From an uncultured Myxococcales bacterium (lineage in GTDB: Bacteria > Myxococcota > Kuafuiibacteriia > Kuafuiibacteriales > Kuafuiibacteriaceae): a DNA stretch of 34,488 nucleotides. Below are positions 1-34,488 of this stretch, one piece after another. A model generated the notes under the pieces. It made no database searches and was not told the DNA's origin. It was given only the letters and a program-made list of their open reading frames with translations. Where the stretch lies: contig CAYXDO010000117.1 of the NCBI GenBank assembly GCA_964463485.1, positions 1 through 34,488 on the forward strand. The letters run 5' to 3'. The stretch's first letter is position 1; each line of letters begins with the position of its first letter. Position numbers and translations under genes: made by a program.

Positions 1-54
1 GACGCAGACGATCTGACGCAGACGCAGACGATCTGACGCAGACGCAGACGATCT
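1..54. repeat. Tandem satellite at the window 5' edge: 20-bp unit gacgcagacgatctgacgca (14-mer core gacgcagacgatct) x ~2.7
   Basis: Direct reading: gacgcagacgatctgacgca repeated head-to-tail from base 1. Its reverse complement (agatcgtctgcgtc) recurs in the array at the 3' end of the window. Confidence 0.85.
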
Positions 55-332: not shown

Positions 333-3143
333 TCATGGCTTCTGAGTGCCGTTGGCGGGCTCTTCGGGCAGGAGGGTTTGGATGGTGCGTCCGAGTTTGG
401 TGCCGCCGACGACATCGCGGAAGATCGAAGCGACGTCCTGACCTTTGAATAGGCTGACGAGGTTCATGTTCTGCGCGACCTCGCCGAGCAGCACCTTGTC
501 GCCGACCGCCTGCAGCGCCTCCACGAGCGCCGGCTGCACGGCCTTCCGCTCGTCCACGGTGGCCTTGGCCTCGGCGTCGCGGAGCGCGATCTGGGTGTCC
601 GCGAGCGCGCGCTTGAAGGCCGTTTCCTCCTCGTGCAGGAGGCGATTGGCCCTCGCCTCGGCCTCGGATTCGGCGATGCGACGGGTGACCAACGCGTCGG
701 ACGCCCGCTTTTCGCGATCGATCCGCGCGTCCAACACGGTGAGCTCACGCCAAGCCTCGAGCTCGGCGGCGGCGCGTTTTCCTTCTTCGTCGCCTTTGAG
801 TACGGCGAGCTTCTGCGCCTGGCGCAGCCGCAGGAGCAAGTCCTCGAGCGCAGCGCGGCGCTCTTCGCTCTCGCGCTGGAGCTCGGTCCGCTCCCGATCG
901 ACGTCCTGACGCAGCTTATCCGATCTGAGTTGCTCGGTGACTTGACGATCTCCAATGACGAGCGCGACGGACTCGCGCTGCACGCGATCGAGCAGAGTCG
1001 CGATCTCTTCGTCGAGGATCACACTCTGAAGCACCTCGACCTCCGTCACCTTCATCCCGTTCTCGGGGAACGAGCGACCCTTGCGCCCAGCGTCCGTGCG
1101 CTCCCCGAGGATGATGTCGCGGAGCAACGACGGGACGTTCGGCCACAGGTCGATGAGTCGCATTTGACGGCAACGGCTCCGCACCAACGATCGCAGGTGG
1201 TCGGTGAGCACGCCGACGTAGTTTTCGTGGTTGAACCACCGGTCCTTGAGCGCGGACTCGAAGACCACCTCGTAACTCACTGTGACATTGATACGGACGA
1301 AGTCGGCGGTCTCGAGGGTGATGACGTCGGAGACTCGGTTGCCCGCGGTTCGCAAGAAACACGTGCGGAGCATCTTCGCGTCCGACTTCGGCGTCCCCGT
1401 CGAGAGAGTCATCGGCACGAGTCGCTCGTCGTACTCGAGGAGCGCGACACACGGCCCTTCGATCACGCGTTGACCGGCGGCCGAGGAAGCGAGGGCCGCG
1501 GTGTTGTGGGCGACCGTGATGGAGACGGCCCAGGGCGTAGTGGTCGGCTCGCGGGTCATCTTGTGCGGCTCTTGAGCGCCGACCCAGAGATTCCACTCGT
1601 CGGTGGGGACGGTGCGGGTGATGTGCACTTCTTTGCGTGGGTCGACGAGGTAACTCTGTTTGCCGCGCACGAGGCGGGCCTCACCGGTGCTGAGGTCGCG
1701 GACGTAGATACCGGACTTTTGATCGATCCCGATGGCTTCGATGAATACGTCGGAGTGATCGTTGCCGACGTGCGGCTGTCCGGTAGCCGGGTGCAGCACT
1801 TCGATTTCATTGAAGGGGAAGAAGAAGCAATTGACTCCCGTCAAGATGAGCTCGTCGCCCGGGTGATAGGTGGCCTCGGTGAGATCGATGCCGCGCGGGA
1901 GCTTGTGGGTGAGCTTCTCCTTGGGGATGGGGGCGATGAAGCGGACCCACAGGGCGCGCTGGGGGAGGAGCTCGAACGCGTAATAGATGCGATTGTTCGA
2001 GCCCTTGGTCATGAAAGAGTCATACGGGCCGGGAAAGACTCGGGCCGGACCCACTTTGATTTGGCGTTTGCCGTCTGCGTCGAGGATCACGCAGAATTCT
2101 TTTTCGCCGAGCACCACGGCTTGCCGAACGAGGCGAGCCTTCCTCATCTCGCGCTCGAGAGCTTGGCGGTGAATGTCACTCGACAGCACTTGCACGAGGT
2201 CCGCGCCGACGGGTTCCTCGCGCTTCTCCTCGGGCGCTGGTGGGGCGGGTCGCGCGGCCTGCTGTCGAAACCGAGCGCTTTGATCGATGGCGACCTTTGC
2301 GTCCTTTTCCTTCCTCCTCAGCGCCGGCTTGGCCTCGAGCTCGGCCATTTGGCTTTCGGCCGCGAGCTCGTCGTAGGCGCGTGCTGGCGCAGGCGGAGGT
2401 GCCGCGGCGACGGCGCCAGCGGCTGCTGTGCCCGGCATGGGTGCGGACGCCAGGATCTTTCGCGCCATCGCAGCGGTGACCTGAGTTCCGTACGCATCCA
2501 CCGCCAAATCAGGAACGACGTCGACTCCGGTCGGAGGGACGTAGAACTGAGTATCGAGCCCGCGGATCACGACGAGCTGGCCACGCTTGAGCTCGACCGG
2601 AGCGACGGTGGAGATTCCGGTTTGCGGAGTGTCACCGACGTCTTCGGCGGTCGCGGCGGTGATCGCCGCCGAGCGCGCGGTGATCTCGTAGTAGGGCGCG
2701 GCGCGATCGACCTCGCCATATACTTTGACCACCAAATACTGATTGGACGCCAGCTCGTGGGCGTCGCGGACCTCGACTCTCTGCCCGGGCCGCAGAAAGA
2801 AGCTGCAAGGGCCGGGAATCATGTGGCGGGTGCCGTTCTTCAGGACCTTCTGTTCGTTGCGACCCGATCGGAACTTACCGTTGGGCCCGCCATCATTCTC
2901 CGCCAATGGGTTGAACAAGACGGCATACTGCGAATCAGCGAGCTCGACCATTCGCTGAGGTTGTCCAGAGGGGTCCTCGACGAAGCCCCCTTGCCCGTCG
3001 TCGATCACCACCCGATCGGCCGCCGTGGGCGACACCATCGTGGGGCCCACGTGCAAGATGACTTCGCCTTTGTCGTCGTCTTGCACCCAGAGGAATTGGC
3101 GTTCGGTGACCGGGATCTTTCGGCTTCCTCGTTCGTTGCCCAT
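333..3143 (-). CDS. Major vault protein (MVP) homolog with Vault repeats, an SPFH-like shoulder and a cap-helix coiled coil; bacterial vault-like protein
   Basis: The ORF runs 333..3281 (982 aa). The likely start is the ATG at 3143 (MGNERGSRKIPVTERQFLWVQDDDKGEVILHVGP aligns with the MVP N-terminus IRIPPYHYIHVLDQ...VEVGP). Segments recognisable from eukaryotic MVP: GIYVRDLSTGEARLVRGKQSYLVDPRKEV (cf. [27 protein letters not shown]) and DVITLETADFVRINVTVSYEVVFE (cf. shoulder [24 protein letters not shown]). Repeated MVP-repeat-like blocks are present (MIPGPCSFFLRPGQRVEV, FCVILDADGKRQIKVGPARVF). The long C-terminal heptad region is rich in E/R/A/L (RESEERRAALEDLLLRLRQAQKLAVLK...), like the cap-helix. 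An Ala/Pro-rich insertion is specific to this protein. Confidence 0.8.
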   Translation of the reverse strand: MGNERGSRKIPVTERQFLWVQDDDKGEVILHVGPTMVSPTAADRVVIDDGQGGFVEDPSGQPQRMVELADSQYAVLFNPLAENDGGPNGKFRSGRNEQKVLKNGTRHMIPGPCSFFLRPGQRVEVRDAHELASNQYLVVKVYGEVDRAAPYYEITARSAAITAATAEDVGDTPQTGISTVAPVELKRGQLVVIRGLDTQFYVPPTGVDVVPDLAVDAYGTQVTAAMARKILASAPMPGTAAAGAVAAAPPPAPARAYDELAAESQMAELEAKPALRRKEKDAKVAIDQSARFRQQAARPAPPAPEEKREEPVGADLVQVLSSDIHRQALEREMRKARLVRQAVVLGEKEFCVILDADGKRQIKVGPARVFPGPYDSFMTKGSNNRIYYAFELLPQRALWVRFIAPIPKEKLTHKLPRGIDLTEATYHPGDELILTGVNCFFFPFNEIEVLHPATGQPHVGNDHSDVFIEAIGIDQKSGIYVRDLSTGEARLVRGKQSYLVDPRKEVHITRTVPTDEWNLWVGAQEPHKMTREPTTTPWAVSITVAHNTAALASSAAGQRVIEGPCVALLEYDERLVPMTLSTGTPKSDAKMLRTCFLRTAGNRVSDVITLETADFVRINVTVSYEVVFESALKDRWFNHENYVGVLTDHLRSLVRSRCRQMRLIDLWPNVPSLLRDIILGERTDAGRKGRSFPENGMKVTEVEVLQSVILDEEIATLLDRVQRESVALVIGDRQVTEQLRSDKLRQDVDRERTELQRESEERRAALEDLLLRLRQAQKLAVLKGDEEGKRAAAELEAWRELTVLDARIDREKRASDALVTRRIAESEAEARANRLLHEEETAFKRALADTQIALRDAEAKATVDERKAVQPALVEALQAVGDKVLLGEVAQNMNLVSLFKGQDVASIFRDVVGGTKLGRTIQTLLPEEPANGTQKP

Positions 3144-4890: not shown

Positions 4891-5117
4891 GTACCGCAAG
4901 GAATTTCTCGAAAGACCCTAACAGGCTGCTGAAAAAGTCGCGATCTGAGAAGTCTACCCAGAGGATCGGCCGTTGCCGTCGGCGTCGCCGCAACTCATGA
5001 TCCCGTTCATCCCGCCATCTTCACCAACACGGACACGATTCGGTGCAACAGCGTCTGCGTCGGATGAGTTTCCGCACTCTTGGTCGGTCGTCCGCTCTCT
5101 CATGCGACCCACTCCGC

Positions 5118-5171
5118 TCGGCGACGGCGACGGCGACGGCGACGGCAACACAACGACGGCAACGGCAACGG
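5118..5171. repeat. Microsatellite (GGCGAC)n degenerating to GGCAAC/GACGGC units
   Basis: ggcgacggcgacggcgacggcgacggcaacacaacgacggcaacggcaacgg, read directly. It lies inside the 640-bp HK–activator intergenic region. Confidence 0.85.
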
Positions 5172-5330
5172 TTTTCGGGACATGGGATTTGTCTAGGTGT
5201 TCGAAATGATCAAGGAAATCGGTTTCAGCAGCCTGCTGAGGCTCCGCAAGGAAATAACTTGCAGCATTCCTCGAGCGCCAACAGTCGATCCCGTCATTCC
5301 TTGACGAGCCCTAAGTACACGTCCGTGGAA

Positions 5331-5475
5331 GTTCGTGACCACGCTGAAACCACAGAGGACGCGGAGAGAAGACACAGAGGACACAGAGAAGTGCTCATTC
5401 CATCATCTGTGTGCTCTGTGGGCCTCGGCTCTGTGCTCTCTGTGGTTTCTCCCGCGGTCACGAATTTGCGGGGAC
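5331..5475. repeat. ~145-bp imperfect-palindromic interspersed repeat, copy A (MITE/REP-like; cacagag-rich arms flanking a ggaatgagca core)
   Basis: The arms ttcgtgacc...gaaaccacagag...cacagag...ctcattcc and ggaat...ctctgtggtttc...ggtcacgaa are mutually inverted. The element matches 15044..15176 (opposite orientation, ~85% by eye) and 18586..18690 (same orientation, left arm shortened). Confidence 0.7.
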
Positions 5476-5530
5476 CTGAACTAAGCGCAGTTCCCCAAGC
5501 TCGTGATCAACGAAGTGGGCTACGAGGAGC

Positions 5531-7141
5531 TTGTCTCGACGACCTGCTGCTGGTGTAGACTCCGTGTTCTTGAGTCGCCGTGGTTCGAAACGCGACCAGC
5601 TTTTCTCGGAGACGCTGGAGCAGCCACCGGAGCCAGCGGCAACGTCGGATCGAGCGACTCTCTTCTTGACCGTGGCTTTTCACCCGGACCTGTCGCGCGT
5701 CGGTGACGAAGCCGTTGTGGAACGCGAAATCCGATTGTGCCGAACCGAGCCGGATTTCGTCCCACCGAGGGGAGGTGAGGCTTGGCCTCTCGCCGACGCG
5801 TTCGTTTCACGGCGGCCGGCCACGATCCGGGCTGAGGGTGACGGAGGAGCTACGTTGATCCGCAGCGCCGACTCGGTCCCGCTCGCGATCGGAGGGGTTG
5901 CGGTCGCGCACGAGACGCGACTCTCGGCCGGCGATCTCCAGCGCGGAATCGCGCTCGAGGTCGCCCAGCGCGTGCTCCTGTTGGTGCACCGGAGGCCTGC
6001 GCGCCGCCCTTCGCCGCCCGAGCTTCGGCTCGTTGGTGAGTCCGTCGAGCTCGATGAAATCAGGCGTCAAATCCTTCAGGTCGCCGATCTCGGGGTTCCG
6101 ACGTTGATCCTCGGTGAGACGGGGACCGGCAAGGAGCTCGTGGCGGAGGCCATTCATAACGCTAGCCGTCGGAGCTCGCTGCCATTCGTGAGTGTCAACA
6201 TGGCGGCGATCGCGCCGACCGTCGCCGCCTCCGAGCTCTTCGGCCATCGTCGCGGTGCGTTCACCGGCGCGGTGGGCGACCGCGTCGGCTTTTTTCAACA
6301 GGCTCACGGAGGCACCATCTTCCTCGACGAAGTCGGAGAGATGCCCGTCGACGTGCAAGTCATGCTCCTCCGCACCCTAGAGAGTGCGACAATTCAGCCC
6401 GTCGGAGCTCCTTCGACGCAGCCCATCGACGCGCGAGTGCTCTCGGCGACTGACTCCGACCTCTCGAAGCTCGTGGCTGAGCAGCGATTTCGCCCGGCCC
6501 TCCTGCATCGGCTCTCCGGCTTCGAAATTTCATTGCCTCCGCTTCGAAATCGTCGTGACGACCTCGGACGCCTCCTGAGTCACTTCCTTCAGAAGGAGCT
6601 CGCGGGGACGGGAGACTGGGATCTGGTGGAGTCGCGTATGAAAGATGCCCGTCCGTGGATCTCGTTGGACGTAGTGCGTTCATTCTTCGACTACGAGTGG
6701 CCAGGCAACGTCCGGCAGCTCCGGAACCTGGTTCGCCAGCTCGCGATCGCAAACCGCGGGGCCGACACGGCGACGCTGCCGGCGGCCATTCAGAGGACAC
6801 TCTCCGAAGGGCTGCTCGAGGCGAGCCCAAGTCGTCCGGCGGCGCGGACGGAGCGCCGCAAGCCGTCCGACGTGGAGGGCGAGGAGCTGATCTCCGCGCT
6901 CAAGGCGCACCGGTTCAACATCCACGCGACCGCGGAGTTTCTCGGAATCACGCGGCCCTCGCTCTACATGTTGATCGAAAAGAGCGATCATCTCCGAAAG
7001 GCCTCCGACATTTCCGCGGTCGAAATCAGGTTGGCGCACGCGGAGGCGAACGGGAACTTGAACCTCATGGCTGAACGGCTGGAAGTTTCGCCGCGCGGAC
7101 TTCGACTCAGGCTGGGCTCGCTCGGGCTGACCGAGTCGTGA
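5531..7141 (+). CDS. Sigma-54-dependent transcriptional activator (bacterial enhancer-binding protein) with an N-terminal FHA-like domain, AAA+ domain and C-terminal HTH
   Basis: Walker A LILGETGTGKELVAEAIH; GAFTGA motif RRGAFTGAVGDRVGFFQQAHGGTIFLDEVGEM; R-finger region; C-terminal Fis-type HTH HRFNIHATAEFLGITRPSLYMLIEK. The N-terminus has an FHA-like pattern (DAFVSRRPATIRAEGDGGATLIRSADSVPLAIGGVAV...LSAGDLQRGIA) and no receiver aspartate region. The ORF starts at TTG 5531 and the true start is uncertain. Its stop overlaps the next gene's start (GTGA). Confidence 0.85.
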   Translation: MSRRPAAGVDSVFLSRRGSKRDQLFSETLEQPPEPAATSDRATLFLTVAFHPDLSRVGDEAVVEREIRLCRTEPDFVPPRGGEAWPLADAFVSRRPATIRAEGDGGATLIRSADSVPLAIGGVAVAHETRLSAGDLQRGIALEVAQRVLLLVHRRPARRPSPPELRLVGESVELDEIRRQILQVADLGVPTLILGETGTGKELVAEAIHNASRRSSLPFVSVNMAAIAPTVAASELFGHRRGAFTGAVGDRVGFFQQAHGGTIFLDEVGEMPVDVQVMLLRTLESATIQPVGAPSTQPIDARVLSATDSDLSKLVAEQRFRPALLHRLSGFEISLPPLRNRRDDLGRLLSHFLQKELAGTGDWDLVESRMKDARPWISLDVVRSFFDYEWPGNVRQLRNLVRQLAIANRGADTATLPAAIQRTLSEGLLEASPSRPAARTERRKPSDVEGEELISALKAHRFNIHATAEFLGITRPSLYMLIEKSDHLRKASDISAVEIRLAHAEANGNLNLMAERLEVSPRGLRLRLGSLGLTES

Positions 7142-18550: not shown

Positions 18551-18585
18551 GGGCGTGCGAAGCCGCGCGATTGTACTGTCGACGA

Positions 18586-18690
18586 AGGACACAAAGAACT
18601 CCTCATTCCATCATCTTTGTGCTTGGGCTACCGCTCTGTGGTCTCTGTGGTCTCTGTGGTTTCTCCCGTGGTCACGAGCTTGGCGGGACG
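18586..18690. repeat. Interspersed imperfect-palindromic repeat, copy C (right half conserved, left arm shortened)
   Basis: ctcattccatcatctttgtgcttgggctaccgctctgtggtctctgtggtctctgtggtttctcccgtggtcacgagcttggcgggac matches the right half of copy A (ctcattccatcatctgtgtgctctgtgggcctcggctctgtgctctctgtggtttctcccgcggtcacgaatttgcgggg). Confidence 0.65.
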
Positions 18691-18783
18691 TGTATTTGGC
18701 GATGAATCGGGCACGGGCGCGGGCACGCCATGAGTCTCGGCGCGACGTTGGGTCCAGATTGGGGCTCGACACGGACGGCTTAC

Positions 18784-22677: not shown

Positions 22678-22786
22678 GACGGGCACGGGCACCACGTCCG
22701 TTCACCGAGCAGGATCGACACCGGGCACAGGCACGGACGGGCACGGGCACGGGCACGGACGGGCACGGGCACGGGCACGGGCACGG
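22678..22786. repeat. Microsatellite (GGGCAC)n with GGACGG variants
   Basis: gacgggcacgggcacc...gggcacggacgggcacgggcacgggcacggacgggcacgggcacgggcacgggcacggcatg, read directly. It lies in the convergent intergenic region between the parvulin gene and the amidohydrolase gene. Confidence 0.85.
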
Positions 22787-22819
22787 CATGAGCTTCCGAG
22801 CCTTTTCAGCCTGTTAGCG

Positions 22820-22900
22820 ATGATTCGGACTTTCGACTCGGACTTCCGACTGATTCCGATTCCGATTCCCGGACTGACTGACTAACTGACTAACTGACTT
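22820..22900. repeat. Low-complexity tract: gact/gattcc repeats ending in ctgactaa-type units that place stop codons in every forward frame
   Basis: tgattcggactttcgactcggacttccgactgattccgattccgattcccggactgactgactaactgactaactgactt. The amidohydrolase stop codon (TAA, minus strand) is within its last bases. Confidence 0.6.
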
Positions 22901-24864: not shown

Positions 24865-25160
24865 CGTCAAGTGGCCGCAGGCGCGATGGTCGCTCCCTGG
24901 GGTTCCGCGTTGAGTAGCGCAGGTCCCAGGGGCCCGGCCGCTCCAGGGGTCCAGCAGCAAGTAGCCGCGGGCGAGATGCGGACCCAGGGGTCCGGCCGCT
25001 CGCAGGGGTTCAGCACCAAGCAGCCGCGGGCGAGTTGCTTGGGGTTCAGCGTTGAGTAGCCGCAGGCAAGATGCCTGCGGTCCCAGGGGTCGCTCCGGGG
25101 TCGCTCCTTGGGGTTCAGCGTTGAGTAGCCGCAGGCAAGATGCCTGCGGTCCCAGGCTTC
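24865..25160. repeat. Array of ~5 degenerate 60–75-bp repeats, each with a GC-rich hairpin (REP/terminator-like), between convergent genes
   Basis: The modules caag(t/c)(g/a)gccgc(a/g)ggcg... recur. Two near-identical copies of ggggttcagcgttgagtagccgcaggcaagatgcctgcggtcccagg are present (~25033 and ~25108). Hairpin: ccgcaggca-aga-tgcctgcgg (9-bp stem). Confidence 0.65.
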
Positions 25161-25804: not shown

Positions 25805-25869
25805 ATCTCGGCGAGCGTCTGCTCAGTGCGTCTGCTCAATGCGTCTGCTCAATGCGTCTGCTCAATGCG
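25805..25869. repeat. Perfect tandem 13-mer x5 (gcgtctgctcaat; first unit ...cagt) in the promoter region of the SLOG gene
   Basis: gcgtctgctcagt gcgtctgctcaat x4, read directly. It lies 110–175 bp upstream of the 25695 start on the gene's strand and immediately downstream of the pseudokinase-like gene's stop. Confidence 0.9.
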
Positions 25870-25874
25870 TCTGC

Positions 25875-26909
25875 TCAATGCTTTGAAACCAGCACCAACA
25901 GCAGCGCGGTCAGAAAGCCAGCCAGGAACCACAAAAGCCCGTCGAGCCGAGGCCTCGATCGCTCGGGAGGCAACGGTGTGGGGGCTGGCGACGCGAAGAG
26001 GTCCGGCAAAGAGCTCGGATCGACGAATTTGGGGGCGGTCGGCTCCCCAGCCGGCGCATCTTTTGCGGGCTCTTTCCGAGAGATCACCACCGGCCCTCCG
26101 AGCCACCCTGCGTGGATGGGCGGGGTGATGGCGGAGAGTCGGCCGGAATCCCGGTCGTCGTCGGCCAGCGGTTGAGGCACGACGGGCAGCGCGCGGGCGT
26201 CCAGGGCGCCGGTGAAGCTGCTCGGGATCGCCGTAGCGAGGAGCTTTGGGGCGGAGCGAGGGGGCGCTCGGACGAGCTCGGCCAGCACGGAGGCGACCTT
26301 TGCCGGATCGGCCCCGAGCTCCTTGAAGAACAGGGCTCCCAGCTTCGCGTCGAGGGCGTCGAGGTCGGCGACGGCGTCGGCAGGGATCGCGCCCGGCAAG
26401 AGCTCACGCGCGAGCTCGAGCAGCTGCTGAGCTTCGCTCGTGGGTCGAGCGTTGGTGGGCTCGAGACTCTCGAGCCCGAGCCCGATCAGCACGACTTCGC
26501 CGCGAGCGGTGATCAAGACGCGGGAGGCGCGCACCGAAAATTCGGCGCCTCGAAAGGCTCTGGTCTCGATGAGAGTTCGCGCGATCTCGCGCAGGACGTG
26601 GATCGCGGGCACTCTCGCCAGCGCACCGAGGCTCGACAGTAGGACCGCCTCGGCGTGTTCGAAGACGACGAAGTGTGCCTCGGCGTCGCTCACGAGCTCG
26701 AGGACTGGGAGCACGCCTGGGTGCAGCAGCTCCGCGGCGAGCTGTACGGCCGCGCGGGCCTGATCTGGATTTGCGGCGGCGCCGAGGCGAATGCAGATCG
26801 TGGGTTGGGAGAAGCGGCGTGCGCGGAGGATCGAGCCCAACGGATCCTCAGCGAGGGTCTCTTCTGGTTCGAAAACCTTGGGAGGGCCCGAGGTCGCCAC
26901 GAGCTCCAT
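25875..26909 (-). CDS. Hypothetical membrane-anchored protein with a degenerate protein-kinase-like fold (putative pseudokinase)
   Basis: ATG at 26909. Kinase-like order without the catalytic residues: G-loop-like DPLGSILRAR, beta3 ICIRL (Arg where Lys is expected), alphaC LAAELLHPGVLP, hinge HFVVFEHAEAVLLSSL, catalytic-loop position FSVRASRVLITARGEVVL (no HRD-K-N), and GLGL in place of DFG. C-terminal TM helix LLWFLAGFLTALLLVLV. The fold assignment is inference. Confidence 0.45.
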   Translation of the reverse strand: MELVATSGPPKVFEPEETLAEDPLGSILRARRFSQPTICIRLGAAANPDQARAAVQLAAELLHPGVLPVLELVSDAEAHFVVFEHAEAVLLSSLGALARVPAIHVLREIARTLIETRAFRGAEFSVRASRVLITARGEVVLIGLGLESLEPTNARPTSEAQQLLELARELLPGAIPADAVADLDALDAKLGALFFKELGADPAKVASVLAELVRAPPRSAPKLLATAIPSSFTGALDARALPVVPQPLADDDRDSGRLSAITPPIHAGWLGGPVVISRKEPAKDAPAGEPTAPKFVDPSSLPDLFASPAPTPLPPERSRPRLDGLLWFLAGFLTALLLVLVSKH

Positions 26910-34320: not shown

Positions 34321-34325
34321 ATCGT

Positions 34326-34488
34326 CCTGCGTCAGATAGTCCGCGTCAGCGTCAGATCGTCAGCGTCTGCGTCTGATCGTCAGCGTCTGATCGTCAGCGT
34401 CTGATCGTCAGCGTCTGATCGTCAGCGTCAGATCGTCTGCGTCAGATCGTCTGCGTCTGCGTCTGCGTCTGCGTCAGATCGTCTGCGT
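34326..34488. repeat. Tandem satellite array at the window 3' edge (13/14-mer units cgtcagcgtctgat and cgtctgcgtcagat), reverse complement of the 5'-edge array
   Basis: Read directly: ...gatcgtcagcgtctgatcgtcagcgtctga... followed by cagatcgtctgcgtctgcgtctgcgtctgcgtcagatcgtctgcgt. The terminal part is the reverse complement of gacgcagacgcagacgatctgacgca at bases 1..54. Confidence 0.85.

Follow-up and report, generated by a model that had tools for sequence, protein, structure and literature searches.

Three imperfect-palindromic intergenic repeats in an uncultured Myxococcales genome as copies of a possible MITE- or foldback-type element

Three intergenic sites in the genome of an uncultured Myxococcales bacterium carry related, imperfectly palindromic stretches of DNA, and the question raised by this locus is whether they are copies of a mobile element, regulatory sites, products of local duplication or structured RNAs. 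The DNA analyzed (referred to here as the window) comprises 34,488 nucleotides with a GC content of 64%, for which a sequence-only reading had proposed a family of interspersed repeats with the behavior of MITEs and REP/BIME-like elements. The repeat family is real, consisting of three homologous, hairpin-type, non-coding copies, designated A, B and C, with a full length of ~176 nt. The best explanation of these copies, proposed here tentatively, is that all three derive from a single mobile element of the MITE/foldback type that is lineage-specific, non-coding and non-autonomous.

The genes of the window, as assigned with Pfam, include those for a major-vault-protein-like protein, a histidine kinase, a sigma-54 activator, a Ser/Thr kinase with a PEGA domain and a TPR protein, as well as MatE, SurA, DUF1552, DUF1585-1595 and GH92 proteins. 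The vault-like protein (936 aa, 333-3143, minus strand) is a bacterial MVP homologue displaying the major-vault-protein Shoulder domain (PF11978, E = 2e-18) together with repeat domains, with Vault_3 slightly under the cutoff and Vault_4 weak. The gene content and the best MatE relative together suggest a Myxococcota-like organism. The lineage is thinly sampled, judging from its proteins: the best match of MatE among 185,579 species representatives (GTDB) is 47% identical, the best relative being a "Myxococcales" MAG, and the 612-aa protein encoded next to copy C has two homologues among 5.8 billion proteins.

Pairwise comparison established the relationship among the three copies. Copies A and B, the latter lying in inverted orientation, are 88% complementary over 119 nt (BLAST E = 1e-41), while copy C aligns with B at 87% over 77 nt and with A at 78% over 110 nt, corresponding to a divergence between copies of 12-22%. 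Homology spans 116-176 nt and the flanks are unrelated. A profile search of the window with nhmmer retrieved A, B and C only, with no fourth match, and all three known copies are contained within 13.4 kb. The 14-nt core GATGATGGAATGAG occurs exactly three times in the window (5394-5407, minus strand; 15111-15124, plus strand; 18602-18615, minus strand), against an expectation of 0.15, and the heptamer CACAGAG occurs 12 times, always within A, B or C, against an expectation of 4.1, a count reached in none of 100 shuffles. The complementarity of A and B, the BLAST alignments and the core matches thus bear out the earlier claim of three related copies at these sites, and the confinement of 12 of 12 heptamers and three of three cores to the copies does the same for the description of cacagag-rich arms around a common center. 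The intergenic placement was also correctly recognized for all three copies. The sites given earlier stand; the length (~140 bp) does not, the elements being longer on remeasurement (Table 1).

Table 1. Extents and parts of the three repeat copies and the nearest downstream start codons (positions in the window)
Feature	Position	Strand	Description
Copy A	5311-5486	+	Full-length, best preserved, imperfect palindrome of ~176 nt; nhmmer envelope 5311-5485
Copy A left terminal inverted repeat CTAAGTACACGTCCGTGGAAGTTCGTGACCACG	5311-5343	+	TCGTGACC-N5-GAAAC motif present
Copy A left arm	5346-5389	+	CACAGAG heptamers at 5351, 5373 and 5382
Asymmetric core TGCTCATTCCATCATC (GATGATGGAATGAGCA on the minus strand)	5392-5407	+	Hairpin loop of A in the predicted fold
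Copy A right arm	5406-5449	+	CTCTGTG heptamers at 5414, 5429 and 5438
Copy A right terminus CGCGGTCACGAATTTGCGGGGACCTGAACTAAG	5453-5486	+	Identity among A, B and C drops to background ~30 nt past GGTCACGA
Copy B	15034-15209	-	Full length, inverted, left arm decayed; nhmmer 15209-15034, E = 6e-56
Copy C	18582-18697	+	Left-truncated; nhmmer E = 2e-32, model positions 62-171 only; inner left-arm remnant, core, right arm and right terminus present, left terminus and outer arm lost
Start codon of sigma-54 activator (copy A)	5564		78 nt from the copy
Start codon of MatE gene (copy B)	14910		124 nt from the copy
Start codon of 822/848-aa CarboxypepD_reg gene (copy C)	18862 or 18784		165 or 87 nt from the copy

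With the core read in the orientation of TGCTCATTCCATCATC, the full element consists of a left terminus, a left arm, the 16-nt core, a right arm and a right terminus. The full 16-mer differs in C, where it reads ...GAGGA instead of ...GAGCA. The arm heptamers are often phased 9 nt apart, with spacings of 9 and 15 nt in A and B and of 9 and 9 nt in C, whose right arm consists of three perfect CTCTGTGGT units that form a tandem 9-mer array at 18634-18664. The termini of the family are marked by TCGTGACC and GGTCACGA, the left one running CTAAGTACACGTCC...TTCGTGACC and the right one GGTCACGA...GGGACCTGAACTAAG, and together they constitute terminal inverted repeats of ~30 nt with the pattern AGTWCASGTCC...TTCGTGACC. 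In copy A, the complementarity of the outer 36-nt arms (5308-5343 with 5453-5488) is 75%. Four matches to the terminus motif TCGTGACC-N5-6-GAAAC are present, against 0.02 expected; two of them mark the two ends of A, while B and C have a single match each, at one end. Terminal inverted repeats of the kind that define MITEs are therefore present in the family, with C having lost its left end.

The right-hand limit of the element is sharp. When the three copies are anchored on GGTCACGA, identity in all pairs is 7-9 of 10 positions for 20 nt, then 5-7 of 10, and then background, which gives A, B and C a common right end, placed within about 3 nt, and unrelated flanks. The family thus comprises dispersed copies with identical boundaries and unrelated surroundings, three being known and all within 13.4 kb. 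Conservation is uneven along the element: A and B agree at 58 of 84 positions in the left half, counting gaps (69%), versus 83 of 94 in the core and right half (88%), and between 5392 and 5451, which covers the core and right arm, they differ at only two positions. Copies B and C have the inner-left-arm variants ACGAAGGACACAAAGAA in common, while A and B share a near-identical right arm, a mosaic that implies repeated copying, or else sequence exchange among the copies.

Folding of each copy set A apart from the others. The hairpin of A is a near-complete palindrome spanning 5308-5488 (DNA z -6.8), with an RNA fold of -76.1 kcal/mol and z scores of -6.4 and -6.9 on the two strands. Copy B keeps the palindromic layout with z scores of -1.3 to -1.9, and 11-19 of 200 shuffles fold equally well; copy C folds no better than chance (z +1.2 to +1.6). 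The long hairpin that had been attributed to every copy is accordingly found in A and not in B or C, so that secondary structure is not conserved across the family (z -6.4 for A, -1.3 to -1.9 for B and above +1 for C). The common right half yields a weak consensus fold on either strand (-9.7 and -4.7 kcal/mol). Neither a sigma-70 promoter nor an intrinsic terminator was found within any copy, and Rfam returned no match in the window at gathering thresholds; in E-value mode, the plant families MIR156 and MIR173 alone scored, far under their gathering scores, and represent noise.

Searches for further copies extended beyond the window. The sequence of this genome examined amounts to 44 kb, consisting of the window and a further 9.7 kb of the 74-kb contig JACQYO010000043.1 (74,359 bp; MAG GCA_016208175.1), part of which is identical to the window. 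Paralogues of the Ser/Thr kinase, followed as a route to other contigs of this MAG, proved to come from other organisms. No further copy was detected by BLAST or nhmmer in the additional 9.7 kb, and neither transposase Pfam domains nor a RAYT gene occur in the 44 kb. The copies are identical across three SRA samples and two assemblies, with no presence/absence polymorphism. Logan contig ends at 15101/15121 are accounted for by a 32-nt stretch that A and B have in common; another end, at 5449, can be taken as no more than a faint sign of additional copies.

An exact scan for the core pattern GATGATGGAATGAGNNNNTCTNTGTG gave no match in GTDB representative genomes, JGI metagenomes or IMG/VR, DNA collections from which the source assemblies themselves are absent. 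The terminus pattern TCGTGACCN{4,7}GAAACCACAGAG matched 74 times in JGI metagenomes, none of the matches being the element: ~70 represent one AT-rich (~40% GC), apparently protein-coding repeat, and the other four are due to chance. The contigs that carry these ~70 matches (Ga01539xx and Ga01573xx) contain TCGTGACC-N5-GAAACCACAGAG by chance in what looks like a eukaryotic copia-type retrotransposon. BLAST against plasmids and phages and a distant-mode blastn search of 5,426 E. coli genomes retrieved nothing similar to the element. A query concatenated from the four open reading frames that cross the three copies, aimed at spurious ORFs called over other copies, matched nothing at E <= 1e-3 in a database of 5.8 billion proteins, a weak negative given that no complete gene is called over the known copies either. 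A literature search yielded nothing relevant on the element.

The assignment to a MITE/foldback-type element is founded on homology, discrete common boundaries, palindromic anatomy, intergenic position and the lack of any coding or known-RNA signal, all of which are observed. In the proposed scenario, a transposase encoded elsewhere in the genome would have recognized the inverted termini, and copies would have been inserted by transposition into permissive, promoter-proximal intergenic DNA. These copies would now be old and decaying, with A intact, B having lost much of its arm complementarity and C lacking its left terminus and outer arm. Segmental duplication is disfavored because the right boundary is common within ~3 nt while no flanking sequence is shared. 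Moreover, the hairpin is not maintained in B and C, which fits the neutral decay of selfish DNA and not a selected structure. Also in favor are the absence of the element from three corresponding junctions of the nearest relative, described below, and a 5-nt CTAAG direct repeat (or TAA) flanking copy A. As a target-site duplication, this repeat can equally be explained as the outermost part of the palindrome, because its bases pair in the hairpin; the flanks of copy B (CTGAG versus CGAGG) do not match, and copy C is truncated. The earlier proposal of a discrete interspersed repeat with MITE-like anatomy is thus sustained by the common right boundary, the inverted termini, the palindrome, the intergenic position and the lack of coding or Rfam matches. 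Of the genome-wide abundance that had been thought probable, the additional 9.7 kb of the contig and 43 kb of the nearest relative give no sign, as neither contains a further copy.

Several observations weigh against a mobile element. Only three copies are known, within 13.4 kb, and none lies in the other 30 kb examined from this genome; the 44 kb contain no transposase domain, the three samples display no polymorphism, and no related sequence was encountered in any public collection scanned. Decay is also uneven, as the higher identity of A and B in the core and right half (88% versus 69% in the left half) indicates. Together with the fact that the same end of the element faces a gene start in all three copies, this unevenness hints at selection on the right half.

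Such selection would be expected if the core, right arm and right terminus constituted an iteron-like, protein-binding cis-regulatory module, a candidate reading that we consider rather unlikely but the most serious competitor to a mobile element. A shared regulator, possibly the adjacent histidine kinase/sigma-54 activator/Ser-Thr kinase system, would then co-control three genes, namely the activator itself, the MatE exporter and the CarboxypepD_reg protein, whose starts lie 78-165 nt downstream. The gene-proximal half is the better conserved one in A and B and the sole half kept in C, and the copies are clustered within 13.4 kb beside the regulator genes. The nearest downstream start codon faces the same end of the element in three of three copies, an arrangement with a chance probability of 0.25. 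Two copies occupy divergent intergenic regions, B between the MatE gene and a 484-aa gene (start 15274) and C between a 612-aa gene (start 18550) and the CarboxypepD_reg gene. The distance from copy A depends on the start of the activator (5564/5855-7141, plus strand), which measures 428 aa in the NCBI record versus 525 aa in a gene call made on a Logan or unannotated NCBI sequence; the upstream start at 5564 is supported by this longer call and by the orthologue in the nearest relative, which aligns from residue 9 of the 525-aa form.

The promoter evidence for such a module is mixed. Copy B lies ~30-200 nt upstream of a sigma-54-like site, TGGCACGACGAGCGCA (15239), that precedes the divergent 484-aa gene. 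However, sigma-54-like sites are not enriched in the window (7 versus 9.3 expected), and none occurs near A or C. Likewise, the GG-N10-GC spacing within the right terminus varies (10 nt in A, 9 nt in B, 11 nt in C), which leaves no conserved -24/-12 promoter there, and the spacing of the heptamers is not constant between copies. Finally, the orthologous activator gene and the 615-aa/SurA junction of the relative are without the module. Pattern scans for a sigma-54 promoter or enhancer (UAS) accordingly gave no support to this idea for A or C, a candidate promoter site being found only at B, with no enrichment in the window. The -24/-12 site itself (15239-15254, plus strand) is located 8-20 nt upstream of the candidate starts of the 484-aa gene and ~30 nt from B; it is the sole such site near any copy and may be a chance occurrence.

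Comparison with the nearest available genome, GCA_016183035.1, bears on how the copies arrived. Housekeeping proteins of the two genomes are 77-84% identical, and protein identity overall ranges from 47 to 84%. A profile search of the 43 kb compared in the relative detected no copy of the element. Two syntenic blocks were recognized there, one running activator-kinase-TPR-446-636 and the other consisting of 474-615 abutting SurA-amidohydrolase-OmpA-cpYpsA-345-ACAD, and each copy is positioned at the edge of a block (HK|activator, MatE|484-aa and 612-aa|822-aa), a placement that also speaks for keeping the cis-regulatory reading in view. By our own count, elements lie at three of five breakpoints versus none of ~10 conserved junctions (Fisher p ~0.02), an association confounded by the coincidence of breakpoints with larger intergenic regions. 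Copy C and the 822-aa gene together form a 2.86-kb indel relative to the other genome, inferred from the distance of 105 nt between the 615-aa gene and SurA in the relative, and ~40 nt of the SurA promoter region still align. At none of the three matching junctions does GCA_016183035.1 carry the element, although gene content differs there too.

These findings are compatible with the copies being local, non-transpositional duplicates, or recombination scars or substrates, which we regard as unlikely. According to this explanation, the palindromic repeat arose once, by slippage and template switching, and was then copied within this one locus as rearrangements introduced the MatE and 822-aa genes. 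In its favor are the position of all three copies at synteny-block edges, with three of five breakpoints occupied as against none of ~10 conserved junctions, the indel containing copy C and the 822-aa gene, and the failure to find a copy elsewhere in the sequence and collections searched. Unrelated inverted pairs of short tandem arrays are also present elsewhere in the lineage (4969-5171 in the window; 14530-14814 in L004, the upstream part of the 74-kb contig; 15742-15885 in L091, a section of the relative), which shows that such structures arise readily here. Against a local origin, the homology of the three copies breaks off at one common nucleotide and their flanks have nothing in common, unlike what segmental duplication leaves behind. 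Furthermore, the relative is so distant (47-84% protein identity) that breakpoints fall in most of the large intergenic regions anyway.

The inverted arrays just mentioned differ in motif from the element and from one another. Immediately upstream of copy A, GCCGTC/GACGGC hexamer arrays at 4969-4990 and 5119-5171 are inverted, 91-95% complementary and ~130 nt apart. Within L004 14484-14939, 75-nt arms of GTCCAC/GTGGAC hexamers (14530-14604 and 14740-14814) are inverted, 89% complementary and 135 nt apart, with 42-nt direct repeats of 88% identity on either side; the architecture is that of the element and the motif is different. In the relative, L091 15742-15885 holds an inverted pair of CCCGAT/ATCGGG hexamer arrays, and a 69-nt GGTCACCCTGAGCTTGTCGAAGGGCC-type hairpin occurs upstream of the 474-aa orthologue (L091 13415-13495).

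Other repeats were noted in the same sequences. The two ends of the window (1-54 and 34321-34488) carry the same tandem array of a 14/20-nt unit (GACGCAGACGATCT...) in inverted orientation, 34 kb apart; the window is a whole contig, from a second, unannotated assembly of the same organism, that broke within these arrays. The left end array measures ~200 nt in the 74-kb record (L004 13059-13258), which differs from the window at ~55-88. Another near-perfect tandem array, with the 13-nt unit ATCGGAGGTCTGA, is situated between AAA ATPase and SRP54 genes (L004 18839-19007). The intergenic region between SurA and the amidohydrolase (22680-22899) contains (CGGGCA)n followed by (GATTCC)3 and (GACTAACT)3.5 micro- and minisatellites, the first of which looks capable of forming a G-quadruplex, and a short (CGGGCA)3 array (18708-18727) abuts copy C. 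Downstream of the OmpA-family gene, at 24888-25156, a 36-69-nt unit is repeated four to five times in what looks like a REP- or terminator-like array, and the near-perfect hairpin CCGCAGGCAAGATGCCTGCGG is contained in two of the repeats. Five tandem GCGTCTGCTCAAT units (25815-25881) lie just past the stop of a 344-aa gene (minus strand; 3' end 25875), and this unit and the contig-end arrays have GCGTCTGC in common.

A broader proposal would unite these themes: the element, instead of being selfish DNA, would be the multi-copy representative of a lineage-wide "foldback" class of inverted pairs of 6-9-nt tandem arrays. The heptamer iterons of its gene-proximal half would then serve as a regulatory cassette, portable and orientation-specific, that is placed before newly acquired or rearranged genes (MatE, the 822-aa gene and the sigma-54 activator) and recognized by a DNA-binding protein particular to the lineage. 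This proposal is, in our estimation, improbable.

Very unlikely is a structured RNA, that is, a small RNA or 5'-UTR hairpin of the downstream gene acting on mRNA stability or translation in the manner of ERIC or Correia elements: the hairpin of A is very stable on either strand, the elements sit at the positions expected of 5' UTRs, and the innermost stem of C displays a possible compensatory change (CACAAAGA pairs with TCTTTGTG, where A has a G-G mismatch in that register), but B and C have no conserved hairpin, the right-half consensus fold is weak on both strands, promoter and terminator signals are absent, and Rfam gave only plant miRNA noise. The earlier suggestion that the elements may act as RNA structures is correspondingly weakened, because the hairpin is lost in B and C. 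A small protein is unlikely as well, since four frames are open only by virtue of the heptamers carrying no stops and the indels between copies shift the frame. Other candidates were rejected on the basis of the anatomy: a retron msr/msd (no reverse transcriptase gene), an integron attC site (no cassette spacing), parS (no consensus) and CRISPR (no repeat-spacer array).

How a MITE/foldback-type element of this design relates to known systems is best considered through its closest structural counterparts. The Correia (CREE) elements of Neisseria, the enterobacterial ERIC/IRU elements and the pneumococcal RUP elements are imperfect palindromes of 100-160 bp present in tens to hundreds of copies. 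The repeats described here resemble them in size class (~176 bp), palindromic form, terminal inverted repeats and a short asymmetric center, and are similarly non-coding, intergenic near gene starts and variously decayed or truncated. They differ from these families in that no TA or reliable target duplication is evident, only three copies are known, the arms are composed of phased tandem heptamers, and the element contains no recognizable IHF-like core or outward promoter. There is also no sequence similarity, as judged from 5,426 E. coli genomes, which carry ERIC, and from plasmids and phages.

Foldback (FB) transposons are eukaryotic, kilobase-scale elements associated with a specific transposase. 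Their long inverted arms of short tandem sub-repeats around a unique center, with variable numbers of sub-repeats, are mirrored in the present element (C has three 9-mers), a resemblance of architecture only and not of homology. REP units measure 20-40 nt and have a conserved 5' tetranucleotide, and REPINs are doublets of ~100 nt that occur in hundreds of copies, mobilized by RAYT (TnpA-REP). As with REP, BIME and REPIN sequences, the copies are interspersed, extragenic, hairpin-capable palindromes that include inverted pairs; unlike them, they consist of a single 176-nt unit with heptamer arms, possess no short REP unit and are accompanied by no RAYT in the 44 kb. The REP/BIME-like behavior that had been suggested is thus a poor fit, and membership in that class fails because the unit is of the wrong size (~176 nt, not 20-40 nt).

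Iteron- or enhancer-type binding arrays, such as plasmid iterons and the UAS of sigma-54 activators, offer a different comparison. UAS sites of sigma-54 systems are located 80-200 bp upstream of a GG-N10-GC (-24/-12) promoter. Like these arrays, the element presents several identical heptamers, direct and inverted, upstream of genes and adjoining the gene for a sigma-54 activator. Unlike them, it has no consistent -24/-12 promoter downstream, its spacing is variable and departs from helical phasing, and the array is missing from the orthologous promoter of the relative.

Taken together, the element is best regarded as ordinary in kind, lineage-specific and without sequence in common with anything searched, and its interest is modest unless it turns out to be regulatory. 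Neither outcome would alter what is understood about repeats in bacteria. If the copies are MITE-like, a Myxococcota-like groundwater lineage that has hardly been sampled gains a family of repeats. The element marks three junctions at which gene order differs from that of GCA_016183035.1 and thereby helps in reading rearrangements and assembly breaks in MAGs. If proteins instead bind the gene-facing half as an array, the three genes would make up a small local regulon beside a kinase and sigma-54 activator cluster, and the element would exemplify the inverted structures of short tandem repeats with which the intergenic DNA of this lineage is filled.
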